Part shown: piece after piece, positions 6,874 to 64,000 of the stretch
How the letters are laid out: each line of letters starts with the position of its first letter
Position numbering within the stretch: the stretch's first letter is position 1
NCBI GenBank assembly: GCA_041581055.1
Contig: JBFGCT010000001.1
Span: 6,652-70,651, forward strand
Length of the DNA stretch: 64,000 nt
Source of the DNA: Ilumatobacteraceae bacterium
GTDB lineage: Bacteria; Actinomycetota; Acidimicrobiia; Acidimicrobiales; Ilumatobacteraceae
Direction of reading: 5' to 3'
The notes under the pieces: generated by a model
Seen by the model: the letters and a program-made list of their open reading frames with translations, nothing else
What the model was told of the DNA's origin: nothing
Database searches by the model: none
Program-made: the position numbers and the translations under genes

Positions 6874-8922
6874 GTGTCGACCTCGCGCATCAGAAACGTC
6901 GTACTCGTCGGGCACAACGGCAACGGCAAGACCAGTCTCGCCGAAGTGCTCCTCTACCGCGCCGGCGTCGTCGACCGCCCCGGGACGATCGACCGCGGCA
7001 ACATGGTCATGGACCACGACGCCGAGGAGCAGGAGCGCCAGCAGTCGCTCTCGCTCTCGGTCGCGTCGTTCGACTGGAAGGGCCACCGGATCAACCTGAT
7101 CGACACGCCGGGCTACGCCGACTTCCTCGGTGACGCGCTGATGGGGCTCGCCGTCGCCGACCTGGCCGTGTTCGTGATCGACGCCGTCGCCGGAGTCCAG
7201 TCGCAGGACACCGTCCTCTGGCGCCATGCCACCGCCCTCGGGATGCCTCGGCTGATCTTCATCAACAAGCTCGACCGAGAGCGATCGTCGTTCGACAGCA
7301 CGCTCGCCCAGGTGCGCGCGGCGTTCGGCTCGCACGCCGACCCGGTCGAGCTCCCGATCGGCGAGGAGTCGAGCTTCCACGGGATCACCGACCTCCTGGC
7401 CGACCAGGCGTTCCTGTACGACTCCGGCCGCGCCGAACCGGCGCCGATCCCCGACGCGTTGGTCGACGCCGAGCGCATCGAGCACGAGCACCTCGTCGAG
7501 GACGTGATCGAGATGGACGACGAACTGCTCGAGCGGTACCTCGAGGGGAACGAGCCGACGCCCGAACAACTCGAGCAACTGCTCCACAACGCGCTCGACG
7601 AGGCCAAGGTCTTCCCGGTGCTCTGCGGTTCGGCGACCACCCCGATCGGGGCCGACTACCTCGCCGACTTCATCTGCAGGGTCGGGCCGGCCCCCGGCGA
7701 CCGCGGGCCGACGGTCGTCGACGCCGGCGACCGCACGGCCGAGGTCCTGCCCGACCCCGACGGGCCGCCGCTGGCGTTCGTCTTCAAGACGACGATCGAC
7801 GAGTTCCTCGGTCAGATCTCGATCTTCAAGGTGGTGTCCGGCACGATCCGCCCCGACCAGGTGCTGGTCAGCTCGGGTTCGCGGAGCAAGGAGCGGCTGC
7901 ACCAGCCGCTGTCGCTGTCGGGGTCGTCCCACACGGCGATCGGCGAGGTGCGCGCCGGCGACATCGCCGCGGTGACCAAGCTGGCCGACACGCGGACGGG
8001 CGACACCCTCGCCCCCGACGGGACGCCGGTGGTGGTCCCGCCGCCGCAGCTCCCCCGCCCGGTGTACGGCGTGGCCATCGCCGCCTCCGCCAAGTCCGAC
8101 GAGGACCGGCTGGCCACGGCGCTGCGCCGCATCCTCACCGAGGACCCCACGCTCGCCGTGTACCACGACAGCTCGACGCACCAGACCGTGCTGAGCGGCA
8201 GCGGCGAGACCCACGTCCGCGTCGCCCTCGCCCGGGTCGCCCGCGCCGGCGTCGCCGTCGAAACCGAAGAGGTCCGCGTCGCCTACCGCGAGACGCTCGC
8301 CGGCACGGTCGAGGCGGAGGGCAAGTACAAGAAGCAATCGGGTGGGCACGGCCAATTCGGCGTGGCGACCGTCCGCTTCGAGCCGCTCCGCCGGGGGGCC
8401 GGGTTCGAGTTCGGGAGCGAGGTCACCGGCGGGGCGATCCCGAAGAACCTCATCCCCGCCGTCGGCGCCGGGGTCGAAGAGGCGATGGCGCGCGGCGGGC
8501 GCTACGGCTTTCCGATGGTCGACGTGCGGGCGGTCTGCCTCCACGGCAAGTACCACTCGGTCGACTCGTCGGAGATGAGCTTCAAGATGGCGGGGTCGTT
8601 GGCGCTGCGCGCGGCGATCGACCGCGTCGGGGTCGAGGTCCTCGAACCGGTCAGCGAGATGCGCGTGCACGTTCCGGATCGCCACCACGGCGACGTGCTC
8701 GGCGATCTCAACTCGCGGCGGGCCCAGGTGGTCGGAACCGGGTCGGACGGCGACCTCACCACGATCCACGCGTTGGTCCCGTCGTCGGAGATCACGCGCT
8801 ACGCGATCGACCTCCGCTCGCTCAGCGGCGGCACCGGTTGGTTCGAGGTCAACCACCACGGCTACCAGCCGCTCCCCCAGAACCTCGTCGACCGGCTCGC
8901 CAAGGCCGACGACGAGCAGTAG
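6874..8922 (+). CDS. Elongation factor G paralog (EF-G2-like translational GTPase)
   Basis: G1 motif NVVLVGHNGNGKTSLAE, DTPGYADF, NKLDRE, and EF-G domain IV/V-like C-terminus. The start is uncertain: GTG 6874 was chosen, and the ORF opens at 6841. Confidence 0.85.
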   Translation: MSTSRIRNVVLVGHNGNGKTSLAEVLLYRAGVVDRPGTIDRGNMVMDHDAEEQERQQSLSLSVASFDWKGHRINLIDTPGYADFLGDALMGLAVADLAVFVIDAVAGVQSQDTVLWRHATALGMPRLIFINKLDRERSSFDSTLAQVRAAFGSHADPVELPIGEESSFHGITDLLADQAFLYDSGRAEPAPIPDALVDAERIEHEHLVEDVIEMDDELLERYLEGNEPTPEQLEQLLHNALDEAKVFPVLCGSATTPIGADYLADFICRVGPAPGDRGPTVVDAGDRTAEVLPDPDGPPLAFVFKTTIDEFLGQISIFKVVSGTIRPDQVLVSSGSRSKERLHQPLSLSGSSHTAIGEVRAGDIAAVTKLADTRTGDTLAPDGTPVVVPPPQLPRPVYGVAIAASAKSDEDRLATALRRILTEDPTLAVYHDSSTHQTVLSGSGETHVRVALARVARAGVAVETEEVRVAYRETLAGTVEAEGKYKKQSGGHGQFGVATVRFEPLRRGAGFEFGSEVTGGAIPKNLIPAVGAGVEEAMARGGRYGFPMVDVRAVCLHGKYHSVDSSEMSFKMAGSLALRAAIDRVGVEVLEPVSEMRVHVPDRHHGDVLGDLNSRRAQVVGTGSDGDLTTIHALVPSSEITRYAIDLRSLSGGTGWFEVNHHGYQPLPQNLVDRLAKADDEQ

Positions 8923-8978
8923 CGGCCGCGGTGGGGCGGCGGCGGGTGCGAGCCCGCCGGCGCGTCTACGGTGGGGGC

Positions 8979-9299
8979 ATGTGCGTGAACTGCATGAGCA
9001 ACGCCGAGGCCGCCGTGGCGAGCTGGGCCGTCGTCGGCTACTTCGTCAAGAGCCCGGTGCACAAGGCGCTGGCGGCCGTCGACCTCGCCCCCGACCCCGA
9101 CCCGGTGGCCCACGACGTGCGGACGGTCGCCTTCCTGCGGGCGCTCGACCTCGACCCGGTCGAGGCGCTCGGCGCCGACGCCGTCGCTCAGGCCGAGTCG
9201 TGGACGCCCGACACCTCTTGGGTGCCGTTCCGCGACCGCTTCCGCCGCCTCGTCTCCGCCCGGCCCATCGGCGCCCAGAGCCTGATCGCCGCCCAGTAG
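8979..9299 (+). CDS. Small hypothetical protein (N-terminal CxxC)
   Basis: The ATG at 8979 gives MCVNCMSNAEAAV... The third-codon position is very GC-rich throughout. The 3' end overlaps the convergent gene by 112 nt. Confidence 0.45.
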   Translation: MCVNCMSNAEAAVASWAVVGYFVKSPVHKALAAVDLAPDPDPVAHDVRTVAFLRALDLDPVEALGADAVAQAESWTPDTSWVPFRDRFRRLVSARPIGAQSLIAAQ

Positions 9300-10126
9300 A
9301 CGCCGACGAGCAACAGCAGCGCCATCGGGTAGGCCAGCCAGGGGTTGGCGTGCGGCAGCGATCGCGCCTCGAGCCACCACGGTCCGGTCCACGACAGGTC
9401 GATCGGGAAGCCCCGGCGGCGCACGCCGTCGATGATCGGCTCGGCGACGACCTGCGCCCACAGGCTCCACGAGATCATCCGGCACACGCCGTAGAAGAAC
9501 ATCGCCCGGTACAGCGCGAGCAGCCCGCGCTCGGGGAGGACGCGGGCGAACCGCGCCCAGATCCGGGCGTCGGGCGGCACGACCGTGGTGCGCCAGTACT
9601 CGCGGGTCAGCACGCGCCAGCTCAGCAGCACGACGACCAGCCAGAACACGTCCATCGCCAAACCGAGGCTCGAGTAGTAGGCGGCGGCGTCGAGATACTT
9701 GCCGCCGTCGACCGTCGCCGCGTACGCCCACGTCTGCGACGTCCAGTTCAACGTGGTGAACGGCCAGAGCAGCATCGTGCCGACCGAGTCGTTGACGTCG
9801 GTGAGCGCGTGGGCGGCGAAACCGAGCACGTAGCCGACCGTGAACGCCCGGTTGCGCTTCCACAGCCAGAACAGCGCGGTGACGATCACCCCGAAGAACA
9901 TCGTGTGGGTGAAGCCCATCCCGGGCCAGCCGCGGTGCCACTGGTGCGGGATGTCGGCGCCATAGCGGGTGCCGTTGATCGTGAACCCGTACACCCAGAA
10001 CTTGGAGAGGAAGTCAGGTGTGAAGTCGCCGAGGAAGATCCCCCAGAAGCTGACCAGGCCGACCATCTTCTTGGGCAGATGGGCTTGAACCGCGTAGATC
10101 TCGAACTGGTGCGCCGCCCAACTCAT
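9188..10126 (-). CDS. Membrane-bound metal-dependent hydrolase (DUF457/YdjM-like)
   Basis: MSWAAHQFEIYAV...FLGDFTPDFLSKFW...GFTHTMFFGVIVTALF...GFAAHALTDVNDS, with multiple TM segments. Start taken at Met56 of the listed ORF. Confidence 0.7.
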   Translation of the reverse strand: MSWAAHQFEIYAVQAHLPKKMVGLVSFWGIFLGDFTPDFLSKFWVYGFTINGTRYGADIPHQWHRGWPGMGFTHTMFFGVIVTALFWLWKRNRAFTVGYVLGFAAHALTDVNDSVGTMLLWPFTTLNWTSQTWAYAATVDGGKYLDAAAYYSSLGLAMDVFWLVVVLLSWRVLTREYWRTTVVPPDARIWARFARVLPERGLLALYRAMFFYGVCRMISWSLWAQVVAEPIIDGVRRRGFPIDLSWTGPWWLEARSLPHANPWLAYPMALLLLVGVYWAAIRLWAPMGRAETRRRKRSRNGTQEVSGVHDSA

Positions 10127-33813: not shown

Positions 33814-35040
33814 TCACTCGCATACGACCAGCTCGCGCACGGTCAGGTCGGCGTAGAGGCGGCGCAGCCTGGCGGCGGCGATGCTCCACGTGTAGCGGCG
33901 GGCCCGGGCGACCGCCGCCTCGCTCATCGAACGCCGGAGGGAGTCGTCGTCCAGGATCTCGGCGACCGCCTTGGCGAAGTCGGACGGGTCCCGCCCGTCG
34001 ATCAGGCGCCCGGTCGCCCGGTCGTCGACGAGGCTGACGAGGCCGCCGACCGCGCTGGCGACGACCGGGACGCCACACGCCGCGGCCTCGAGGGCGACCA
34101 GCCCGAAGCTCTCGCTGCGGCTCGGGACGAGCACGACGTCGGCGGCGCGGTAGTACGTCGACAGGATGTGGTGTGGCTGGGGCGGGATGAACCGCACCTG
34201 GTCGTGCAGCCCGAGCTCGTCGACGAGGGCGCGGGCGCGGGCCGACTCGCCGTCGCCGTCCTCACCGCTCGCCCCGCCGACGATCAGCAACAGCGCGTCC
34301 GGGCGGGCCAGCGCGGCGAGCGTCCGAATCGCGACGTCGGGGCCCTTGAGCGGCTGGATGCGCCCGACGAACAGCAGAACGGGGCGATCGGGGGCGACAT
34401 CGATGGCGCGGCGGGCGCCGGCCTGGTCGCCCGGGGCGAAGAACGCGTGCTCGACGCCGGGGGCGATGATCTCGACGCGCCCCGGCGGGTCGCCGTACAG
34501 GCGCCGGAACTGCTCCTCCTCCTCGACGCAGCTCACGCAGATCGCGTCGGCGCAGTAGATGATCTCCGCCTCGGCGCCGTCGCGCCACGTCGGCTCGAGA
34601 TCGCCCCCCTCCGCCTTCACCCTGGCCAGCGTGTGGAACGTCGTGACGAACGGAACGTCGAGGTCGTGCTTCAGCTCGTGGCCGACCAGCCCGCTCAACC
34701 AGTAGTTGCCGTGGATCACGTCCGGGCGTTCGTTGCGCGCCATCCAGTCGAGCACGCCCTCCCGGAAGTCGTACGTGACGTCGCACAGCGCCTCCTTCGG
34801 CAGGTGATGCGGGCCGGCCTCGACGTGCACCACCCGATGCCCCGGCTCGACGAGCACCTCGGCCGGCAGACCGGCGCGGTCGGCCCGGGTGAACGTGGTG
34901 GTCTCGACCCCGGCCTGCGAGAGCGCGGAGAACAGCTCGCGGACGTAGACGTTCATCCCCCCGCTGTCGCCGGAGCCCGGCTGCAGCAGCGGCGACGTGT
35001 GGAGTGAGATCACTGCGACGCGTTGCACGGCCCGCGACAC
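33814..35040 (-). CDS. mshA: D-inositol-3-phosphate glycosyltransferase (mycothiol biosynthesis)
   Basis: VAVISLHTSPLLQPGSGDSGGMNVYVREL is the MshA signature. GT4 C-terminal motif PSRSESFGLVALEAAACGVPVVA. Confidence 0.85.
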   Translation of the reverse strand: MSRAVQRVAVISLHTSPLLQPGSGDSGGMNVYVRELFSALSQAGVETTTFTRADRAGLPAEVLVEPGHRVVHVEAGPHHLPKEALCDVTYDFREGVLDWMARNERPDVIHGNYWLSGLVGHELKHDLDVPFVTTFHTLARVKAEGGDLEPTWRDGAEAEIIYCADAICVSCVEEEEQFRRLYGDPPGRVEIIAPGVEHAFFAPGDQAGARRAIDVAPDRPVLLFVGRIQPLKGPDVAIRTLAALARPDALLLIVGGASGEDGDGESARARALVDELGLHDQVRFIPPQPHHILSTYYRAADVVLVPSRSESFGLVALEAAACGVPVVASAVGGLVSLVDDRATGRLIDGRDPSDFAKAVAEILDDDSLRRSMSEAAVARARRYTWSIAAARLRRLYADLTVRELVVCE

Positions 35041-53500: not shown

Positions 53501-53619
53501 CCGCGGATGGTAATCGAGCCGCGACCGGCCGCCCGGCGGCCCGGAACCAGCGGTGGAAGGCGGCCGGGCCCCTGCTAGATTCGACTCGCTCTCAACGAGA
53601 CGAGGTCCTCGCCTCACAG

Positions 53620-53692
53620 GCCCCCATCGTCTAGTGGCCTAGGACACCACCCTTTCAAGGTGGCGGCACGGGTTCGAATCCCGTTGGGGGTG
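53620..53692 (+). tRNA. tRNA-Glu (anticodon TTC)
   Basis: Hand-folded cloverleaf: acceptor GCCCCCA/TGGGGGT, anticodon arm CCACC CTTTCAA GGTGG, T-arm ACGGG TTCGAAT CCCGT. Confidence 0.9.
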
Positions 53693-53703
53693 CAAATCAC
53701 AAT

Positions 53704-53778
53704 GGTCCCGTGGTGAAGTCAGGAGTTCACGCCGGCCTGTCAAGCCGGAGGTCGCGGGTTCAAATCCCGTCGGGACCG
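53704..53778 (+). tRNA. tRNA-Asp (anticodon GTC)
   Basis: Acceptor GGTCCCG/CGGGACC, anticodon arm CCGGC CTGTCAA GCCGG, T-loop TTCAAAT. Confidence 0.9.
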
Positions 53779-53850
53779 CACAGGGGCCACCCGTCATCCA
53801 CATGACGGGTGGCTCCTGCGAATTCGGAGCGCGGCGCCGCTCCGAACCAC

Positions 53851-53923
53851 GGTCGAGTAGCTCAGTTGGCAGAGCGTCCGCCTGAAAAGCGGAAGGTCCC
53901 CGGATCGACGCCGGGCTCGACCA
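53851..53923 (+). tRNA. tRNA-Phe (anticodon GAA), atypical T-loop
   Basis: Acceptor GGTCGAG/CTCGACC, anticodon arm TCCGC CTGAAAA GCGGA, T-arm CCCGG ATCGACG CCGGG (A at position 54). Confidence 0.85.
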
Positions 53924-54000
53924 CGCCGCACGAGGGCGCCGGGGCAGCGCCTCGGGCCACGCTCGGTCGACCCCGCACGCGCGCGTCGACTCGGCGCGCG

Positions 54001-55392
54001 TCAGGTCTCGACGAACATGACGTTGGTCAGCCAACCGAGTACCGGAGCGTTGCGTGATCCGTTCTCGGTGACGAACACGTCCTGGCAGCCGGGCATTCGC
54101 GCCATGGCCTCACGCGCCTCCTCGAGCGTCGAGTCGGGAGCGACCGTGCCGAACGTGGATTCGAACATCTTGGCCATCTCCTCGTCATTCAAGAGGTCGC
54201 GAAGGCTGAGCTTCGCGGTGTCCTGACCGGCGAATGATTTCGCCGCCACGAACTCCATGATCATCGAGCGATGGGCGATCATATGGGCGTAACCCTCGGC
54301 GTCGATGATCGGGATGCGCGACCGGCCGTTACCCAGGAGCTCTCGAAGGATCACGGTCTCCGGGTCGATCGCTCCCAGCTGAAGAGCGTAGATGTCCTCC
54401 ATGCGCAACATGCGGTCGCGGGCGAGCACCTGGGGGCTCTCGACCGGCATGAACGAGATGTCGAAATGTCCGGGCTCGCCATCGGCCCCGGCCCGGTACG
54501 CGCTCACGAACGGGAGGTGCAATCCCCCGCCTTCGGACTCGTACGGCGCCCACGGCACGGAGCGGAGCTCCTCACGGAGCGCTGAGACCACTTGACGGAC
54601 GATGGACTGAATCCAGGGTGGAAGATCACCGAGACTGCGCGGCTGGCCCTCGAGGCCCATCAGGCGGGCGAGGCCGGTCGTGGGGCCGATCGCGATGCTG
54701 AACAACCCCTCGACTCGCTGGCTGGACTCGATCCTGGCCTCCGACGCCAGAGCCGCCGCGGCGACGTCCTCGCGACTCTGTGGAGTGGCGCTCATGATCG
54801 ACTCGACGGCTGAGCCGGGCAACTCGACGCGGACGAACGGACTGGTGACGCGGGTGGTCTTGTCCATCGAGAGCCGTTCCAACCAGGGACGCAGGTGTTC
54901 GTGCAACGACTGCGCCAACTCCCTGAGGCGTTCCTCCCGGCGGTCGTACCCCGTGAGCGGGCCGTCGTGCCCCTGGACGAATGTCGCGTCGGTGGCCAAC
55001 TGAACGACGAACGCCTCCAATGAATCGACCGACGTCGCGTCGACGCGCAGCGAGGTGCCGTACACCACTGGTGCCTGGCTACCGCATTGAAGGACGATGA
55101 CATTCGTCGGCGTCGTGTCACGAGGATCCGTTGCGACCCCGCATTCCCACATGCAATAGGACCAGTCCTGGTCCTCGCCCGTGTACACCAGGAAAAGAAC
55201 GTCCGTGCTCGCCAGCGCGTTCTTCAGCTCATCGTTCAGCTCCTTACCCGCACGCGGACCCTGAAAGTTCGGCGAGGACGAAAGGTGTATGTCGGCCTGG
55301 GCGTTGGTCAGATCACGGATGAACTCGGCCAACACCAACGCGATGCCGCGATCGGCATGCTTGTGGCTCACGAAGAAGTAGGGATTCGTCAT
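54001..55392 (-). CDS. TIR-domain protein with C-terminal CBS pair
   Basis: N-terminal FFVSHKHADRGIALVLAEFI...STDVLFLVYTGEDQDWSYCMWECG (TIR_2-like, Glu83 retained). C-terminal Bateman-like IPIIDAEGYAHMIAHRSMIMEF and CQDVFVTENGSRNAPVLGWLTNVMF. The ATG at 55392 has GGAG 8 nt upstream. GC is lower than in the flanks. Confidence 0.7.
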   Translation of the reverse strand: MTNPYFFVSHKHADRGIALVLAEFIRDLTNAQADIHLSSSPNFQGPRAGKELNDELKNALASTDVLFLVYTGEDQDWSYCMWECGVATDPRDTTPTNVIVLQCGSQAPVVYGTSLRVDATSVDSLEAFVVQLATDATFVQGHDGPLTGYDRREERLRELAQSLHEHLRPWLERLSMDKTTRVTSPFVRVELPGSAVESIMSATPQSREDVAAAALASEARIESSQRVEGLFSIAIGPTTGLARLMGLEGQPRSLGDLPPWIQSIVRQVVSALREELRSVPWAPYESEGGGLHLPFVSAYRAGADGEPGHFDISFMPVESPQVLARDRMLRMEDIYALQLGAIDPETVILRELLGNGRSRIPIIDAEGYAHMIAHRSMIMEFVAAKSFAGQDTAKLSLRDLLNDEEMAKMFESTFGTVAPDSTLEEAREAMARMPGCQDVFVTENGSRNAPVLGWLTNVMFVET

Positions 55393-55489
55393 CACGTAGC
55401 TCCGATCTACAACCACCACGACCCTACTGCGGGTGGACGGTTGGGGCTTCGCCCGTTTCGACCGCGCCGAGGACCTTCACGCCGCGCCG

Positions 55490-56284
55490 TCACACGCCGA
55501 TGTCGCGACGATTGAAGCCCCAGCTCCCGACGGCGACGAGGATCAGCACCACGACGATCATGAGGGCACAGTCGCCACCGTCGAGTCCGCGTCTGAGCGG
55601 ATCGTTACCCGTCAGCCAGTCGAACGGCGACAGGTTCTCGACCCACTCGAGCCCGTCCCGCTGCGGGATGATCCCATTGGCCACGTATCCGAGGACCGCG
55701 GCGCCGGCGCCCACGCCGAGGGCCAGCGACCGGCGTCCCGACGCGGCGCCGACAGCGAACGCCAGGGCGCCGAAGACGGCGGCGAACAGGGCGAGGTGAG
55801 CGTGCATCGCGGCGAACCCGGCGATCGGGATGTCGTCCAGTCGGGCCGGCACGATCAGCGCGAGCATCGCCAGCCAGAACACGCCGACGATGATCGCGAC
55901 GCTGACGAGGAACGCGGCGAATCGCCGAACCGCCAGCCCCACCCGGCTGACCGGCTGCGCCGCGATGAGGTCGAGGGTCCCGGCCTCCTCGTCCCCGGCG
56001 ATCGCGCGGGCGCCGGCGCCGACCGAGTAGACCACCAGGAGGACCGCCACGATCAGCCCGTACACGCTGGCGGCGAGGTACCCCGCAGCGGTGGAGATGT
56101 CGCCGTAGTCGAGCGCTTCGAGCAGGCCCTCGGGATAGCTGTCGAGTGCCTCCTGGATCCCCGGCGAGTCGATCGTCGGCCAGAACGCGGCGTAGCCGCC
56201 GCCGACGATCACGATCGCCAGCGTCCAGACGGCGATCGACCGCCGGGCGTCCCACAGCCACTTGGTGAAGACGTCACGCAGCAC
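55490..56284 (-). CDS. ABC-2-type transporter permease
   Basis: 264-aa, 6-TM protein overlapping the upstream ATPase gene by 11 nt. Confidence 0.75.
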   Translation of the reverse strand: MLRDVFTKWLWDARRSIAVWTLAIVIVGGGYAAFWPTIDSPGIQEALDSYPEGLLEALDYGDISTAAGYLAASVYGLIVAVLLVVYSVGAGARAIAGDEEAGTLDLIAAQPVSRVGLAVRRFAAFLVSVAIIVGVFWLAMLALIVPARLDDIPIAGFAAMHAHLALFAAVFGALAFAVGAASGRRSLALGVGAGAAVLGYVANGIIPQRDGLEWVENLSPFDWLTGNDPLRRGLDGGDCALMIVVVLILVAVGSWGFNRRDIGV

Positions 56285-57185
56285 CGCCGGCCTCGTCCCC
56301 GTCGCTGTAGTAGTGGAAGAAGAGGTCCTCCAGGTCGGCTTCCTCCACGGACAGCGTGACGACGACGTGACGCGCCGCTTCCTTCACAAGTGCGTCAGCG
56401 CTTCCGTCGAGCCGACACCGCAGCACGGCGCCGTCGACCTCGACGGCGCCGACCCCGGGAAGCCCGGCGAACGACGACGCCGAGACGGGGCCGTCGAACC
56501 GGATCTCGACCGCGCGCATCGAGCGTTCGCGAAGGTCCTCGACGCTCTCGACCGCGGCCAGACGGCCTCGGCGGACGATTCCGACTCGATCGGCGGTCTG
56601 CTGCACCTCGCTCATCACGTGGGACGACATGAACACGGTCCGGCCATCGCGGGCCGCCTCCCGGGCGAGGGCGGCGAACTCCTGCTGCAGGAACGGATCG
56701 AGTCCGCTGGTCGGCTCGTCGAGGACCAGCAGCTCCGGGTCGTGCATGAAGGCCTGGATCACGCCGACCTTCTGGCGGTTCCCCTTGGACAGGGTCTTGA
56801 TCCGCCGGCCGGTGTCGAGCTGCAGCCGGTGGGCAAGCTCCGCGACCCGGCCGGGCGCGACTCCGCCGCGCAGGTTGCCGAGGTACGTCAGCAGTTCGGC
56901 GGCGGTCTGGCGACCGTCGACGGCGAAGTCGCCGGGCAGGTAACCGATCCGGCGGCGCAGCCCGACGCCGTCGCGGCGCGGGTCGACACCGAGCACGACG
57001 GCGCGCCCGCTCGTGGGCCGGATCAGATCGAGGAGCAGCCTGATCGTCGTCGTCTTCCCCGAACCGTTGGGGCCGAGGAACCCATACACCTCGCCGCGGT
57101 CGACCTCGAGGTCGAGGCCCGCCAGTCCCTTGCTCTGGCCGTAGTCCTTGACCAGCCGCTCGGTGCGAATCGCGGCCTGAGCCAT
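56274..57185 (-). CDS. ABC transporter ATP-binding protein
   Basis: Walker A GPNGSGKTTT, signature LSKGNRQKV, Walker B LLVLDEPTSGLD. Confidence 0.9.
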   Translation of the reverse strand: MAQAAIRTERLVKDYGQSKGLAGLDLEVDRGEVYGFLGPNGSGKTTTIRLLLDLIRPTSGRAVVLGVDPRRDGVGLRRRIGYLPGDFAVDGRQTAAELLTYLGNLRGGVAPGRVAELAHRLQLDTGRRIKTLSKGNRQKVGVIQAFMHDPELLVLDEPTSGLDPFLQQEFAALAREAARDGRTVFMSSHVMSEVQQTADRVGIVRRGRLAAVESVEDLRERSMRAVEIRFDGPVSASSFAGLPGVGAVEVDGAVLRCRLDGSADALVKEAARHVVVTLSVEEADLEDLFFHYYSDGDEAGGAA

Positions 57186-57200
57186 CGCGGGTCCCCGGCG

Positions 57201-60200
57201 TCAGTCGCAGGCGGTCGGGGTGGCGCCGACCTCGGCGCTCAACGTGTCGGAGGTGAAGAACCCCGCGAAGAGCGTGCAGGCACGCTCCGGATCCCACGGC
57301 GCGTCCCACAGCCGGACCGCGCCGTCCGAGCCGGCGGTCGCCAGCACGGTCCCGTCGGGGCTGAAGTCCAGGCCGAGCACGAAGCACGGCTGGTCGTCGG
57401 AACAGCCGGGCAGGCCGTCGATCGGCTCTCCGGCGATCGGACCGCTGGACCCGAGCTGCCCGGCCGGTCCGAGCGGCCAGATGCGGATCGTCCCGTCGTT
57501 GCCGCCCGACGCGAGCAGCCCGCCATCGGGCGCGAAGGCGACCGGACCGACCTCGTTCGTGTGCCCGGTCAGGACGAACCGCTCGCCGGTCGTGCGGTCG
57601 ACGAGGCCGATCGTCTGATCCTTGCTGGCCGAGGCCACGAGGTCCGCGGTCACGGCGATCCCCCTGACATTGCTGGAGTGCGGCGAGGCGAGTCCGCCCT
57701 CCGACTCCACCAGCGCGTCGCCGGTGATCTCCAGCTCGCGGACGTTCCCGCCGATGTCACCGACCAGGAGGCGCCCGTCGCTCTCGAACTCCACCGCGGT
57801 GACCTCCTGGAGGTCCTCGCCCAGATCGATCTTGTGCTCGTCGACGAGCTCGCGGCGTCCGATGTCGAACAGGCGAACCCAACCGTCGTCGCCGACCGAC
57901 GCCGCCCAGCGACCCGTCGGGTCGATGGCGACCCGGCGGACCTCGTTGTCGGTCGCGCCGTCCACGTCGCCCGGCTCCCGCAACTCGTAGCCGAGGCTGG
58001 TCAACTCGCTCGTGCCGTCGCTCCGGTCCCACAGCCAGACGCGGCCGTGGCCGGCGGCGACGATCACGTCCTCGGTCGGGCTGAACGCGAGGGAGTACAA
58101 CCGGTTCCGGTTCCCGTCCTCGACGAGCAGGTCCCGCGGGTCGGGAACGAGATCGGCGCCGACCCGCTCGTGCGTGCTCGGGTCCCACAGGCGGATCGCC
58201 CCGTCGAAACCGGCCGACGCCAGCAGGGTCCCGTCGCGGTTGTACACGACCGAGGTCAGAAAGCACGTGTCGTTGGGCCCGCGCGGGCCGCAGTCGTTGT
58301 GGACCAGCTCCGGCGCCAGGTCGACCGCCGTGGTCGCCCAGGTGCGCACCGTCCCGTCGCCGCTGCTCGAATAGAGCCGCGAGCCGTCCGCGGAGAAGGC
58401 CACCCCCGACACCCATTCGCTGTGGTCGGTGAGCGGGACGCCGATCGGCGCCCATCGCCCGGCATCGGCGTCTTCCGCCGACCAGACGATGATCGTGCGG
58501 TCGGTGCTCGACGTCGCCAGCAGGTCGCCGGCCGGATCGAACGCCAGCCCGCGGACCGCGCGGTTGTGCCCGACGAGCGGCACCGGCGACGGATCGCGGC
58601 CCTCCAGGTCGGACCAGTGCCACATCGTGCCGTCGGCGTACCCGACGACGAGCGCGCCGGACGTCGGATGGAAGGCGGCGACGTACGCCGCGGTCAACGC
58701 CGCCTCGTCGTCCACGCCGGCCGCCGGCGCCAGGAGTCGCCGGACCGCCGACCCCGAGGCGACGTCCCAGAGCACGACCTGGCCACCGGCGTCGTCGTCG
58801 GTCCGGTCGCCGTCGGGGTTCTGACGATCACCCTCGGCGGACACGAGCACCCGACCGTCGTCGCTGAACGCGACGTCGAACACGTCCCCCGGCACGCCCA
58901 ACGACCCCCGGTCGAGGACGGTCGGGGTCGGCGGGCTGGCCGCGAGATCCCACAGCCAGACCCGTCCCTCGTCGTCGCCCGACACGACGCGCTCCGACGT
59001 CGGGTCGAAGGCGACCGCGTGGATCAGCCGGCCGGCGGGCTCGCCGGGCGGAGCGTGGTCGAGGACGTGGACGGCGTCGAACGCCGATCCGGCGCGCTCC
59101 CACAAGGTGACCGTTCCGTCCTGTGACGACGTGGCGAGCCAGCGGCCGTCCGGGCTGAGGCTCGTGTCGTACACGTTCGCCGGCGACTCCTCCCGCCCCA
59201 CGAAGACCGCGCCGGCCGCCGCTTGGTCGCCGAGGTGGACCGAGGTGTACTCGCCGACGACCACGTCGCCGTCGGGGCCGAGCGACAACCCGACGACCCC
59301 GCGATCGAACTCGAAGGGATCGCCGTACGGCGACCAACGCTCGTCGAAGGTGGCCCGCGCCGACACGAGGGCGCGGATCGACTCGGGCGTCGACGGCTCG
59401 ATCAGCGCCGTGCTCTCCGCGGCGACCGCCAGCGCCAGCGCCGGGTTCGACTCCTGGAGGAAGCGCGACGACGTCGACAGCTTCGACGCGGTCGCCTCGC
59501 GGAGCGCGTCCTCGGCCCTGCCCTGGGCGCGGACGGCGGCGACGAGGCCGATCGCGGCGACGGCGAACAAGACGATGGCGGCGACCGCCAGCACCAGGTT
59601 CCGGCGCGAGCTCCGGCGCAGCGCGGCCGCCCGCTGCTCCCTCTCGTGGCAGGCCTCCAGGAACTCGCGGTCGATGTCGTTGAGCTCGTCGGGGTTGGCG
59701 GCCGCCCAGTCGTCGGCCTCGACGAGCACCTCCCCGCCGATCAGCAACCCCGACGACCGCTCGCGCCGGCCCCACTCGTCGGCCTTGAGCTGGAGATTGG
59801 ACAGATGCTGGGCCTCCCAGGCGGCGTTGGAGGCGCGGATCGGCTCGACGAGCCGGTCGTGGGCCAGCTCGTACCAGATCGCGCCGCGGCGCGACTCGGC
59901 CCTAGTGAGATGGGCGTCCTCCAGCCTGCGCAACACGTCGTGGCCGGCGTCGCCCGGTCCGGACAGCGTCTGGGTCCGGAAGCCGTGTTCGGTGATCAAC
60001 TCGTTGTCGATCCACTGCCGGATCGCCCGCTCGCTGACACCGGTCGCTTCGGCGACCCCGGCGACCAACTCCTCGTAGAACGTGGCGAGCGCGTCGTCGA
60101 CGCTGCCCAGCGCTTCGACGTCGGCGAGCTCGATCGACGACGCTCCGGCCGACAGCCCGTCCCACATCCGCCGGCAGACGACCTGGAGCTGGACCGGCTC

Positions 60201-61025
60201 GACGTAGCGCCCGAGCTCCTCGACGACCGAGTCGCCGCGCTGCACGCGAACCTGGCGGAGATCGTCGATGAGCCGTTGCGCCGCGACGTCGGTGAAGTCG
60301 GCCCCGGCGTCGGCGACGGCCCGCTGGGCGGCGACCGTGGCCGCGCCGGCGTCGAGGAGGTCGAGTCGGTAGCGGGTCCGCAGCCGGGTCGGCACGTACC
60401 TGACGAAGTCGTCGAGCTGCGTGACGAAGTCCTCGCGCATCGAGAACAACGCGGACCAGCGGCGATCGCGCAGGGCCTTGCCGACCTCGGCGACGAACTC
60501 GACCTTCTGGTCGTGGTCGGTCGGGTCGAGGGTGAGCAACTCCTCGAACTGGTCGAACACCAGGCACGGATCGAGGTCGTCGCCGGTCGGGAACAGCGCG
60601 AGGTACTCGGCGAACCCCATCCTCGCCAGCGCCGCCGGATCGACGCGCTCCTCGGCCGGCCGCGCCCCGTCGAGCGAGAACAGCGCGCTCAGCAGGTACC
60701 GGTTGCCGACCCCGCCGCCCTCGGCGGGCGCCCCACCGCCGTCGACCATGTCGAGATGACCCACGCGGATCGTCGGGAGCACCGCGAAGTCCCGGCGCTC
60801 GAGCTCGGGACGCAGGCCGGCGTCGATGAGCGAGGTCTTGCCGGCGCCCGACGGGGAGTACATCAAGACGATGCGGTCGGCGATCAACAGGTCGCGGAGG
60901 TCGCCGATCTCGACGTCGCGCCCGTAGATCTTCTCGCCGCGCCGGATCGAGCGCGGGCCGACGAACGGGTTGCGGCGCTCGCTGCCGGGCTCGACGCGTT
61001 CGGCCGGATCGGCGACCGACGTCAT
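57201..61025 (-). CDS. STAND-type NTPase (nSTAND1-like) - single TM helix - WD40 beta-propeller protein
   Basis: [25 protein letters not shown]...[21 protein letters not shown] (Walker A) and [10 protein letters not shown] (Walker B). [25 protein letters not shown] (aa 476-498) follows RRSSRR. At least 13 blade endings of the type DGTVRLWD. Start at ATG 61025; the upstream 518 aa of the listed ORF is a shadow frame over the next gene. Confidence 0.8.
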
Positions 61026-62782
61026 CGGACGGCCGCCCTCAGCTCGGCGAGCCCGGCGGCGAACTCGTCGATCGAGCCCCAGAAGATGTCGATCGACGGG
61101 TTCCGGTACTTGCCGAAGTACCGCTCGAGGTACTTCTGCTCGCGCGACCGCCCCTCCGCCCCGGGCCGGAAGTCGGCCTGCGCGCCGACGTGGGAGTACT
61201 TGTTGAGCTTGTGCCCCCCCTCGGCGCTGATCAGCGCCCTGAGGAGCACCCCGACGTCGACGCCGTCGAGGCCGAAGCCGAGCAACAAGAGCGCCGAGTC
61301 GGCCAGCACGCGGCGCACCGGCTTGGGGATCAGCGACGGATCCTGCGTGACGCTGATCAGGAAGTCGAGGTAGTCGTCCGAGCTGAGCACCAGCGAGTCC
61401 GGCGTGTCGACGGTGCCGAAGACGTGGTACACGAGCGGGCGCTCGACGGACGGAACGTACCCGGGCTCGGTGTCGAAGACCGACGGCGGCCAGTCCTCCT
61501 CGTACACGTCGGGCCGCCACCGACAGAGCTCGACCGCGGGCTGCTTGCCCGCCTCGACAAGGGCGTCGGCCATCAGCGCCCACGGATGGGCGATGACGTA
61601 GATCCGGCACGGAAGCCCGGCCAGCACCTGGTGCGGGTCGTGGTCGACGGTCGCCAGACGGTCCCGCCACACCGCGCTCAGCACCTGGTTGAACTCTTCG
61701 GCCGAACCGTCCTCCACCGACTCGCCGAAGTTCTCGACGATCTGCTCGCGTAGACCGTCGGTCAGGGCCGACCGCAGCGTGTCGACGTTGTTCATCACCT
61801 CGACGAACTGGGCGGCGAGCGGCAGGTCGTTGCGCCGGCGCAGCTTGGTCGGCAGGTTGAAGCTCTGCGCCCAGCGCTTCGCCAGGTCGTCCATCGGGCC
61901 GACCAGCGAGTCGGTGATGCCCCGGCCGATGATCGGCGTGAAGTGGTCGTTGTCGACGTGGGTCATCAGCGAGCGGAGCAGGTCGACGGTGTCGGGCTCC
62001 AACTCGGCGAGCGAGCGCCGCTGGCGGGCGGCCCGGCGCTCCCGGGCGATCGGGAGCGTGGCGATCAACCGATCGACGTCGCGCTTGACGGCGACGGCGA
62101 GCTCGCGCCGTCCGAGCAGCTGCTCGGCGAGCGCCAGCAAGGTCGGGTGCTGGTCGGCGGAGGCGACGTGCTGGCGCAGGAGGGCGACGAGCTCCTCCTG
62201 CTCGTCGAGCGTCAGCGTGTCGGTCGAGGCCAGCCGGTCCTTGAGCGGCGCGAGGTCGACGATCGGCGGCGGCGGCGGTTCGGGCGGCGGACCCGACGGC
62301 CGCACCCGCTCGGCCTTCCCCTTCTGCAGCACCGCGACGGCCAGCGCCGTCACGCTCTCCGGCGTGCGCTGTCGGAGGTCGACGTACTGCGTGGTGCCGA
62401 TCGGATCCGGCGCGAGCTGGACGTCGGTGTCCCGCACCATGACCGGGATGATCGGCGCGCCCAACGCGACCGCGTAGGCCAGCTCGGAACGGCACGCCCC
62501 CGACTGCAGCGAGGCCGGGCTCAGCAGGAACAGGAACACGTCCGCCGACCGGATCCGATCGAGGATGACGTCCCACCACTGCTGCCCGCCGCGCAGCTCG
62601 CGATCGAACCAGACCTGCGAGCTGACCTGTCGCAGATCGTCGTTCAGCGTCGCGGCGACCGCGGCGTCGGGACGCGCGTAGCTGATGAACAGCTCGATCC
62701 CGTCGCCGCCTCCCGACGGCGGATCGACGGCGCGCGGCGCACCTGTCGCCCCCGCTGCCGGGGGAGGAAGCTGATCACTCAT
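61022..62782 (-). CDS. TIR domain - linker - SIR2_2-like domain fusion protein
   Basis: [21 protein letters not shown]...[25 protein letters not shown] (TIR_2-like, Glu100). The C-terminal half has IIGRGITDS..., [26 protein letters not shown] and [14 protein letters not shown] (SIR2_2-like). Its stop overlaps the start of the NTPase gene (ATGA). Confidence 0.7.
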
Positions 62783-62968
62783 CTCGTCACCCGGTTCTCT
62801 CGCGCGCGTTCCGTGAGACGACCGTACCGTGTCCGGGTCGGCGATCCTGTACGTGACACGGCCCGCCGTCCCGGCCTGCCCGTGACCGGCGGCCGTGATT
62901 GGGACTTGACGGCGGGCCCGACGGACCACAGAGTGCTCACGAGGGCACACGACGGTCGAGAGGGCTTG

Positions 62969-63889
62969 GTGACGGAGACGATCGGTTTCATCGGGTTGGG
63001 CACCATGGGCGGGCCGATGTGCGAGCGTCTGGCCGGCGCCGGGTTCGGGATCGTCGCGTTCGACCTCGAACCCGAGCGGCTCGCGGCGGCGGGCGGCGCC
63101 GGGGCGCGGCCGGCGGGCTCGGTTGCGGACTGCGCGGCCGGCGCCGACGTGTTGTTGACGTCGCTCCCCCGGCCCGACGACGTCCAGGCGGTCATGGCCG
63201 ACGCCGGCGCGCTGGCCGCGCTCCGGCCGGGATCGCTGTGGATCGACCTGACCACGAACCGCAAGGAGTTGGTCGCCACGCTGGCCGCGGCCGCGCCCAC
63301 CGGCGTCGACGTCGTCGACTCGCCCGTCACCGGCGCCGTCGACGGCGCCCGCACGGGTCGGCTCACGCTCTTCGTCGGCGGCGAGCCCGCGCCGGTGGCA
63401 CGAGCGACGCCGATCCTCGATCATCTCGGCACGGTGATCGCCTGCGGGCCGCTCGGCGCCGGCAACGTCGTCAAGCTCGTCACGAACCAGTTGTGGTTCG
63501 TCGCCGCCGCGGCGATCGGCGAGGGCTTCGCGGTCGGCATGTCACACGGCGTCGACCTGGCGGTGTTGTACCGGGCGATCTGCGATTCGGTCGGCGACTC
63601 GTTCGTCGCCCGCCACGACGCGCCGTCGATCTTCGCCGGCCACTACGACCCGTCGTTCAGCCTCGCGCTCTGCCTGAAAGACCTCGGATTGCTCGCCGAG
63701 CTCCAGCACGACGTCGGCGCGCGCTTGCTCCTGACCGACGCCGCCCGCGCCGCGTTCGCCGAGGCCGGCGAGCGGTACGGGACCGGCGCCGGCGAGATGC
63801 ACGTGGCCCGACGGCTGGAGGACGACACCGGGCTGTCGTTCCGGCTGGACGGCGACTGGACGGCCCCTTGGGAGGTGGCGGCGGAGTGA
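62969..63889 (+). CDS. 3-hydroxyisobutyrate / 6-phosphogluconate dehydrogenase-family NAD(P) oxidoreductase
   Basis: IGFIGLGTMGGPMCERL Rossmann motif, VDSPVTG, and GAGNVVKLVTN. The GTG at 62969 is preceded by GAGAGGG. Confidence 0.85.
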   Translation: MTETIGFIGLGTMGGPMCERLAGAGFGIVAFDLEPERLAAAGGAGARPAGSVADCAAGADVLLTSLPRPDDVQAVMADAGALAALRPGSLWIDLTTNRKELVATLAAAAPTGVDVVDSPVTGAVDGARTGRLTLFVGGEPAPVARATPILDHLGTVIACGPLGAGNVVKLVTNQLWFVAAAAIGEGFAVGMSHGVDLAVLYRAICDSVGDSFVARHDAPSIFAGHYDPSFSLALCLKDLGLLAELQHDVGARLLLTDAARAAFAEAGERYGTGAGEMHVARRLEDDTGLSFRLDGDWTAPWEVAAE

Positions 63890-64000
63890 CGACGACCGGC
63901 ATGGCCGGTGGGATCGGTCGGACGGTCGGCAGACGAGGGGAGGTCAGACGCAGAGCGCGGGTTGTCCGCCGAGCTCGTCGCTGAGCCGCTGCCGGCCGTC

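Follow-up and report, generated by a model that had tools for sequence, protein, structure and literature searches.

We analysed a stretch of 64,000 nucleotides (nt) from an Ilumatobacteraceae bacterium of the Actinomycetota (assembly GCA_041581055.1, contig JBFGCT010000001.1), referred to below as the window, in which two adjacent minus-strand genes, here called A and B, encode a protein with a TIR domain and a SIR2-like domain, and a STAND NTPase of the nSTAND1 family with a transmembrane (TM) helix and WD40 repeats. A first-pass annotation had described the pair as a candidate immune or cell-death module acting on nicotinamide adenine dinucleotide (NAD+). Our results indicate that the constant core is the SIR2-like domain together with the nSTAND1 module, that the TIR domain is one of several exchangeable heads, and that the SIR2-like domain is most likely an adaptor or regulatory pseudo-enzyme rather than an NADase. 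The features of the locus, with coordinates given in the window, are listed next.

61022 to 62782, minus strand: gene A, 586 amino acids (aa), a predicted cytoplasmic effector or adaptor with a TIR domain, a helical linker and a SIR2-like domain, defined by its open reading frame (ORF), its translation, Pfam matches and a frame plot of the GC content at third codon positions (GC3).
62363 to 62695, minus strand: TIR domain of A, about aa 30 to 140, with a catalytic-type glutamate, Glu100 (CRSEL), and an invariant GGxxWW motif.
61973 to 62362, minus strand: proline-rich linker (LPxPxPPPP) and helical middle region of A, about aa 141 to 270.
61025 to 61972, minus strand: SIR2-like domain of A, aa 271 to 586, defined by Pfam SIR2_2, Foldseek, the alignment register to ThsA and column statistics.
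61022 to 61025, minus strand: ATGA stop/start overlap of A and B, read from the sequence and pointing to translational coupling.
57201 to 61025, minus strand: gene B, 1274 aa, a predicted single-pass membrane STAND NTPase with a WD40 sensor, defined by its ORF and Pfam matches.
59598 to 61025, minus strand: nSTAND1 module of B, predicted to be cytoplasmic, aa 1 to 476, with NPFVG, Walker A and Walker B motifs and helical and winged-helix domains.
59541 to 59597, minus strand: TM helix of B, aa 477 to 495, from hydropathy.
57204 to 59540, minus strand: predicted extracytoplasmic region of B, aa 496 to 1274, a helical stalk followed by about 13 to 14 WD40 blades (two propellers), the putative sensor.
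62783 to 62965: intergenic region shared with a divergent 3-hydroxyisobutyrate-dehydrogenase-like gene, presumed to hold the operon promoter.

The ORFs and translations match the first-pass description of A as TIR_2 plus SIR2_2 and of B as nSTAND, TM helix and WD40, all the domains score above their Pfam cut-offs, and the residue numbers it gave for E100 (CRSEL), H453 (YHVFG), NPFVG, K63 and DQFEE are correct. The overlap that it reported at 61022 to 61025 is also real: at the A/B junction, GTCCGATGACGTCG, the TGA stop of A overlaps the ATG of B. The GC3 plot changes frame exactly at this point, with a third-position GC of about 0.93 to 0.99, which backs both minus-strand frames, and upstream of 62783 the coding signal is that of the divergent plus-strand gene. 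A consensus scan found no sigma-70-like site in 62783 to 62965, promoter and terminator scans having yielded no useful result in this high-GC genome. The exact B protein is present, with the same neighbours, in three NCBI assemblies (GCA_041564375.1, GCA_041628315.1 and GCA_041594955.1).

The N-terminal part of A (aa 32 to 139) matches the Pfam family TIR_2 (PF13676) with an E-value of 1.7e-24 and 87 bits (cut-off 28). E100 is invariant in 44 homologs, together with S34, Y35, R37, D60, W69 and W70, and it aligns with the matching glutamate of the closest solved TIR sequences, SPARTA TIR-APAZ (8qlo, 6e-9) and Cat1 (9mud, 4e-8). SPARTA and Cat1 are NAD+-depleting TIR systems activated by oligomerisation; the activator is an Argonaute with its guide in the former and cyclic oligoadenylate in the latter, and, unlike A and B, neither has a STAND or SIR2-like module. 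The conservation of these residues singles out the TIR domain as the foremost candidate for the role of catalytic head in A. The AlphaFold2 model of A, with a mean predicted local distance difference test (pLDDT) of 83, places helices at 178 to 277, after a linker in which P162, P167, P170 and P173 are conserved.

The TIR domain, proline-rich linker and helical module (aa 30 to 245) are also widespread without the SIR2-like domain, fused to a TM helix and varied outer domains. This stand-alone module was seen in Arthrobacter, Mycobacterium, Chlorobium, Thauera and others (our loci L041, L042, L020, L035, L043 and others, at about 8001-9500 in each), in a layout that resembles a Toll-like receptor, and one database relative (P0062) pairs the TIR domain with a PknH_C domain.

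The product of gene B matches Pfam nSTAND1 (PF20703) over aa 33 to 394 with an E-value of 5.9e-23 and 82.5 bits (cut-off 27.1), and Pfam WD40 with an E-value of 8.3e-68 and 222.4 bits (cut-off 27), in nine scored repeats. The NPFVG motif lies at 19 to 23, Walker A (GAGKTS) at G60 to S65 with K63 as its lysine, and Walker B (DQFEE) at 158 to 162; the Walker residues are invariant or nearly so in 47 homologs. In an AlphaFold2 model of residues 1 to 496 (pLDDT 90.9), P-loop, helical and winged-helix domains lead to a long helix that extends into the membrane. The Foldseek matches of the cytosolic part of this model are archaeal Walker ATPases, ORC/Cdc6, Avs4, CED-4, Apaf-1 and MalT, the structural neighbourhood expected for a protein modelled as a STAND NTPase. 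In the C-terminal part, blade-ending motifs recur 11 to 13 times between 639 and 1237 at a spacing of about 45 to 60 residues, which fits 13 to 14 predicted WD40 blades, that is, two propellers, in line with the minimum of 13 that had been proposed earlier.

The TM helix named by the first-pass annotation is located at residues 477 to 495, with a Kyte-Doolittle value of 3.07 over its 19 residues, and it is the one strongly hydrophobic segment of the protein. Positive charges (RRSSRRN) lie on its N-terminal, NTPase side. Because the NTPase must be cytoplasmic and these charges stand on the same side of the helix, the variable domain is predicted to lie outside, and the WD40 sensor of B is therefore probably extracytoplasmic, a consequence that the annotation had not drawn. 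A single TM helix is conserved, at the matching position after the NTPase module, in 13 full-length partner NTPases, the TPR type being the only exception among the full-length ones, and an extracytoplasmic location fits the kinds of sensor domains found in the relatives.

A search of 5.8 billion proteins and a locus scan limited to one genome per species, which returned 79 loci, were used to determine how A and B vary across genomes. The protein search gave about 50 full-length TIR-SIR2_2 homologs of A at 40-60% identity, as well as CHAT-SIR2_2 proteins that match only its C-terminal half. In all 22 loci with a SIR2-like domain, an nSTAND1 gene lies immediately downstream on the same strand; one further SIR2-like locus is cut by a contig end and is not counted among the 22. 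The pairing also holds in the reverse direction, since, of seven close homologs of B that were sampled, five are directly preceded by a (TIR or CHAT)-SIR2_2 gene, one lacks it and one is ambiguous; the co-conservation of the two genes, on which the first-pass annotation had made its proposal depend, was thus found. The 4-nt stop/start overlap recurs in 13 of the 22 loci, with offsets of -1, -8, 0 or +7 nt in the others. The hosts are Acidimicrobiia/Ilumatobacteraceae, other Actinomycetota including Nonomuraea, Anaerolineae/Chloroflexota, a Synechococcaceae cyanobacterium, Gemmatimonadales (Gemmatimonadota) and a Nitrososphaeraceae archaeon, and the closest relatives are Ilumatobacteraceae/Acidimicrobiia metagenome-assembled genomes (MAGs).

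Both ends of the pair vary. The heads found on the SIR2-like domain are TIR, CHAT, CHAT plus TIR, CHAT plus Metallophos (a calcineurin-like phosphoesterase), EAD1 or none, CHAT being the commonest (104 of the 150 closest representatives). The sensors on the nSTAND1 partners are WD40, discoidin/F5-8C, PPC, pentapeptide repeats, NHL/YncE propellers and TPR, to which wider relatives add FHA, DUF1566/Lcl_C and PG_binding_1. Comparison of the sequences thus indicates that what stays constant is the SIR2-like domain with its nSTAND1 module and that the TIR domain is one of several exchangeable heads, so that the TIR-SIR2 fusion, which had been taken as the defining unit, is not the part that is conserved. 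A variable sensor and a variable effector around a constant core are the signature of STAND immune systems, as known from work on Avs and on nucleotide-binding leucine-rich repeat receptors (NLRs). Two database proteins (P0281 and P0329) carry nSTAND1, CHAT and SIR2_2 in one chain, and these fusions give support of the Rosetta-stone type for a functional link. The less usual architectures on the SIR2-like domain (P0281, P0329, P0253, P0245, P0209 and P0274) comprise nSTAND1-CHAT-SIR2_2, CHAT-Metallophos-SIR2_2, CHAT-TIR-SIR2_2, EAD1-SIR2_2 and SIR2_2-TIR.

Several further arrangements of the two families were observed. The same three assemblies that hold the exact B protein contain a paralogous system in a housekeeping context (L083 10001-15776; also L084 and L085), made up of a TIR-SIR2_2 protein of 640 aa that is 58% identical to A, a 298-aa nSTAND1 protein limited to the nucleotide-binding domain, and a WD40 protein of at least 988 aa. 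Its three genes are all joined by 4-nt overlaps, and the NTPase is thus split in two. The nSTAND1 gene is split at the same point, at about residue 290 to 315, after the P-loop domain, in several unrelated lineages (L001 3217-4083, L006 9656-10498, L012 9663-10562 and L015 3737-4675), with the remainder in another frame or in the next ORF. The pattern resembles a natural split that has recurred in a STAND NTPase and not an assembly error, with the reservation that some of these genomes are long-read MAGs, in which frameshift errors are possible. Two loci contain tandem arrays: at L090 422-9008, a CHAT-SIR2_2 gene is followed by an nSTAND1 plus Lcl_C gene, a Peptidase_C25-like gene and a second CHAT-SIR2_2 gene, and L092 1877-8422 has one CHAT-SIR2_2 gene ahead of two nSTAND1 genes, of which one includes an FHA domain.

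The SIR2-like domain itself matches Pfam SIR2_2 over aa 404 to 544 of A with an E-value of 6.5e-13 and 49.4 bits (cut-off 24.5). In the AlphaFold2 model, its best Foldseek matches are KomC (9v0g_E, TM-score 0.68), ThsA, DSR2 and SIR2/HerA, and on this modelled structure the assignment to the sirtuin/defence-sirtuin fold is sound. The GxG NAD-binding loop is kept (P283, G286 and G288, in IIGRGI), G286 being invariant. The subfamily comprises 393 clusters at 50% identity (E<=1e-30) and extends over bacteria and Thaumarchaeota.

The catalytic residues are a different matter. N112 and H152 of ThsA are both required for its NADase activity. When a profile of the SIR2-like domain was aligned to ThsA, with the position of N112 verified by counting (the 8bto entry carries N112A), N112 of the TTNYD motif fell on H399 of A (YVIAHPW) and H152 of the YKMHG motif on F455 (YHVFG), so that both the catalytic asparagine and the catalytic histidine are absent. 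H453, which the first-pass annotation had proposed as a target for mutation, is not the catalytic histidine of the SIR2 fold and corresponds to ThsA K150; it is a family-specific, non-canonical histidine two residues upstream of the canonical position, which in A is F455.

Column statistics were taken over the 150 closest representatives of the SIR2-like domain after clustering at 50%, many of whose "short" entries are fragments. The canonical histidine column contains histidine in none of the 150 and phenylalanine in 132, while asparagine occupies the asparagine column in 0 of 21 TIR-fused representatives and in 62 of 104 that are CHAT-fused. In the TIR clade, the histidine seen at H399 is the most frequent residue of its column, mostly as His-Pro, and H453 is present in 17 of the 21 TIR-fused and 76 of the 104 CHAT-fused proteins. 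Only the remote SIR2-only partners of nSTAND1 (Nonomuraea; L060, L068 and L071) keep both canonical residues (TTNYD and HLHG), and in these loci the SIR2 domain is the only candidate effector. A rule by which SIR2-only partners keep the asparagine and fused ones lose it had fitted a small set of loci and was dropped once the 150 representatives were considered, because the whole close subfamily lacks the canonical histidine, and the asparagine is lost in all TIR-fused and about 40% of CHAT-fused members.

Since both canonical residues are lost, the SIR2-like domain is most likely, as judged from these alignments, an adaptor or regulatory pseudo-enzyme and not an NADase. The earlier proposal that both domains of A attack or process NAD+ is therefore not supported for the SIR2-like domain; the TIR domain, with its invariant E100, is the candidate NADase. 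The simplest reading is that an ancestral pair of SIR2 effector and nSTAND1 gained new heads and that the sirtuin domain stayed as a coupling module with a degenerate or altered pocket. The alternative is that both halves of A are active NAD+-consuming enzymes, the SIR2-like pocket using a shifted set of residues, H453 plus H399; in that case, the SIR2-like domain might be triggered in cis by a nucleotide made by the TIR domain, as a one-protein Thoeris. The fold nearest to defence NADases, the retained GxG loop, the frequencies of H453 and H399 given above, and the existence of SIR2-only partners that keep TTNYD and HLHG, where SIR2 is the sole possible effector, all speak for this alternative. 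We nevertheless regard it as unlikely, given that the residues equivalent to N112 and H152 are both replaced and that the columns in question vary within the subfamily (H, Q, E, A, D, S and T at the asparagine position; H, Q and Y at that of H453). One subclade, moreover, lacks the second glycine of GxG (ITGVAM), and the Pfam matches of A include no SLOG or Macro domain, nor any other that could sense a nucleotide made by the TIR. Because the GxG loop and H453 are largely conserved, this pocket may still bind a ligand or support an unusual chemistry.

Taking these results together, we propose with moderate confidence that A and B form a two-gene, translationally coupled, NLR-like (STAND) conflict module, in which B would be the membrane sensor, the SIR2-like domain of A the adaptor and the TIR domain the enzymatic head. 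B would be a single-pass membrane receptor with its nSTAND1 module inside and a double WD40 propeller outside as ligand sensor, and the SIR2-like domain would couple A to its nSTAND1 partner. Binding of a ligand to the outer propellers would lead the nSTAND1 module to exchange its nucleotide and oligomerise; subunits of A, made in a fixed ratio through translational coupling and held through their SIR2-like domains, would be clustered, and composite TIR-TIR active sites could then form. Cleavage of NAD+ would follow, with its depletion and possibly a signal of the cyclic ADP-ribose type, and would end in growth arrest or cell death. The logic of a STAND sensor with an NAD-type effector, on which the first-pass annotation was built, holds overall in this scheme. 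Its least certain steps are the contact surface between A and B, the outside-in direction of the signal and the biological trigger.

A more ambitious version, which we put forward only tentatively, is that the family represents a bacterial and archaeal "outside-in NLR", in which a membrane STAND NTPase would detect an extracellular ligand with its swappable ectodomain and, by way of a purely adaptor sirtuin-fold pseudo-enzyme, bring together interchangeable death heads (TIR and the caspase-like CHAT) in the cytoplasm.

Several points weigh against the proposed module and must be set beside it. The extracytoplasmic placement of the sensor draws only on hydropathy and the positive-inside rule, and we know of no tested precedent for an outward-facing phage sensor, the characterised bacterial STAND sensors (Avs, bNACHT) acting in the cytoplasm. 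H399 and H453 are themselves conserved, and the SIR2-like pocket may keep an altered chemistry or bind a ligand. No shared adaptor domain (effector-associated domain, EAD) linking A and B was found. The neighbours of the pair are the dehydrogenase, an ABC transporter and core metabolism genes, with no obvious defence island; no full-length relative of A was found by tblastn on 72,556 plasmids or 50,697 phage records, which gave TIR-only matches; and no PADLOC system model matches the locus. Finally, all members of the family are known from sequence and prediction alone.

A second alternative is that the module does not act against phages but senses, from the outside in, cues of the envelope or the environment (cell-wall fragments, neighbours or competitors), and that in actinobacteria it governs dormancy, developmental cell death or kin discrimination; this differs from the proposed model mainly in biological role and not in molecular logic. 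It would agree with a sensor predicted to lie beyond the membrane, with relatives whose sensor domains are typical carbohydrate or cell-surface binders (discoidin, PPC, PG_binding_1 and DUF1566/Lcl_C), with the core-chromosome setting of this locus and the housekeeping context of the second, paralogous system of the same genome, and with the link that Kaur et al. draw between such systems and multicellular or colonial prokaryotes. Heads of the TIR and CHAT types, however, are classic effectors of suicide or immunity, and the rapid swapping of sensors suggests an arms race. Some relatives also adjoin conflict genes (CHAT-TPR and an extra TIR in L086, PemK in L089), and the window itself contains a low-GC TIR-like gene at a distance of 1.8 kb; on balance, this alternative appears quite improbable.

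That A and B are co-transcribed but functionally independent, or that the real unit is a larger operon including the downstream ABC transporter, whose ATPase gene starts 15 nt past the B stop with no terminator-like site seen between them in the terminator scan, can be largely dismissed, as the ABC, TIR-like/CBS and dehydrogenase genes are absent from every related locus while A and B are always kept, their stop/start overlap is conserved across phyla, and fusion proteins of both families exist. The ABC ATPase and permease were accordingly rejected as a third component, and the unit is taken to be A plus B.

The nSTAND1 two-gene conflict systems were catalogued by Kaur, Iyer, Burroughs and Aravind (eLife 2021, PMC8195603; Figure 2 source data, section 8), who predict for them a counter-invader or apoptosis-like role; their tables list nSTAND1+TM 412 times and contain 92 "TIR+DrHyd" entries. 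The first-pass caution that similar neighbourhoods might already have been catalogued was justified, many operons of the kind "TIR+DrHyd-> nSTAND1+TM+BetaPropeller" being listed in that source data. Our pair shares with them the NTPase family, from which work the Pfam nSTAND1 model derives, the nSTAND1+TM+BetaPropeller architecture of B, and a TIR-containing effector gene directly upstream. Comparison of domain content therefore makes A and B appear as a variant of a kind of computationally predicted nSTAND1 conflict system that is already known. The partners described there are, in contrast, TIR+DrHyd (DUF4062-type), plain TIR or fused caspase/trypsin, whereas A is TIR+SIR2_2; A is set apart from the "TIR+DrHyd" partners by their listed descriptions and by having no DUF4062 match at E<=0.1, with only a sub-threshold Nuc_deoxyrib_tr match inside its TIR domain. 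Strings such as "TIR+SIR2" and "SIR2+nSTAND1" occur 0 times in the supplements of PMC8195603, and that work makes no mention of a strict SIR2-like/nSTAND1 pairing, of lost sirtuin catalytic residues or of the translational coupling. EACC1, the "effector-associated constant component" of Kaur 2020, was considered as a counterpart of the SIR2-like module and rejected, since EACC1 is a TM domain that goes together with caspases and has no relation to this module.

A full-text literature search for "TIR-SIR2" found no paper, and the A-B pair is absent from those passages of recent surveys (on TIR systems, on domain-centric discovery and on STAND proteins) that matched our search terms. Three features thus appear to be undescribed: the obligate SIR2-like/nSTAND1 pairing, the missing catalytic residues of the sirtuin domain and the NTPase split that recurs between lineages.

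Among characterised systems, Avs/AVAST (including Avs5, SIR2-STAND) and bNACHT share the three-part logic of effector, STAND NTPase and variable repeat sensor, use TIR or SIR2 effectors, and include Avs4, one of the fold matches of B; Avs proteins are activated by oligomerisation. Each of these consists of one cytosolic polypeptide, which binds its phage proteins inside the cell, whereas here the effector is encoded by a separate, coupled gene, the NTPase is a member of nSTAND1, and the sensor is predicted to be placed outside by a TM helix. PADLOC gave no match of an Avs or NLR model to A or B.

Type I Thoeris (ThsB, a TIR protein, and ThsA, SIR2-SLOG) also combines a TIR domain with a ThsA-like SIR2 fold: ThsB models match the TIR domain of A weakly, and ThsA ranks high among the matches of the SIR2-like domain in both structure and sequence. 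A differs from Thoeris, which depends on a SLOG-type receiver and on active N112/H152, in lacking SLOG and Macro domains, in having TIR and SIR2 fused instead of separate, in the replacement of N112 and H152, and in its obligatory STAND NTPase partner. No named defence system could be assigned from PADLOC and NCBIfam, the only matches being TIR-level ones to ThsB, Aga_TIR and ThcB4, far below a system-level call: the NCBIfam Thoeris model ThcB4 scores 31 bits against a cut-off of 220, the PADLOC ThsB matches cover the TIR domain only, and FxsC_Nterm (FxSxx-COOH system) scores 19.8 bits, below its cut-off of 130.

The resemblance to Toll-like receptors and to the resistosomes of plant TIR-type NLRs (TNLs) is one of analogy only, in that an outward- or ligand-facing repeat sensor would control the clustering of cytoplasmic TIR domains; in TNLs, the NADase site of the TIR domains arises by induced proximity. 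Homology does not extend past the TIR and STAND domains, and here the sensor and the TIR domain are on two proteins, bridged by the NTPase and the sirtuin-fold module.

To our knowledge, the sirtuin fold is known in bacterial immunity only as an NAD+-destroying effector. If the proposed model is true, it would also serve as a catalytically degenerate coupling module that hands different effectors to one STAND NTPase family, and some prokaryotic NLR-like receptors would sense beyond the membrane, unlike the cytoplasmic Avs and bNACHT. The wider, tentative version would add a new non-catalytic role of the SIR2 fold and, assembled out of NLR parts, a prokaryotic equivalent of the way Toll-like receptors work. 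Annotation pipelines in which SIR2 domains are scored as NADase effectors would over-call this SIR2-like subfamily. The subfamily has no experimentally studied member, and the A-B pair, with its compact size of 5.6 kb, offers a tractable test case.

Regarding the surroundings of the pair, the downstream ABC ATPase (56274-57185, minus strand) and ABC-2 permease (55490-56284, minus strand) are probably co-transcribed with A and B in this genome. Beyond them, at 54001-55419 on the minus strand, lies a second, unrelated TIR-like gene of 472 aa, with a weak TIR_2 match (1.5e-4, aa 15-129, with a glutamate in CMWECG), weak ThsB/SpbK matches and a weak C-terminal CBS match. It occupies the lowest-GC stretch of the window (0.66 vs ~0.72) and directly adjoins a tRNA cluster; its N-terminal half (aa 13-213) has a match of 35% identity in the related locus L016.

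The cluster, at 53620-53924 on the plus strand, consists of tRNA-Glu(ttc), tRNA-Asp(gtc) and tRNA-Phe(gaa), and bounds a 9-kb block with the TIR-like/CBS gene, the ABC transporter and the A-B pair. A genomic island at this point was considered and rejected: a direct repeat of the tRNA-Phe 3' end was sought in 53600-64000, where only chance-level, short GC-rich repeats were seen, and neither an integrase nor an att-like repeat of the tRNA 3' end was found at the tRNA cluster and the A-B block. The remainder of the window is core chromosome, with genes for EF-G, Mrp antiporter subunits, methylmalonyl-CoA mutase and acyl-AMP ligases. A glycosyltransferase gene at 33814-35040 on the minus strand matches both Pfam "GT4-conflict" (1.7e-26) and the general GT1/GT4 families, and is probably an ordinary enzyme in a sugar-modifying cluster.

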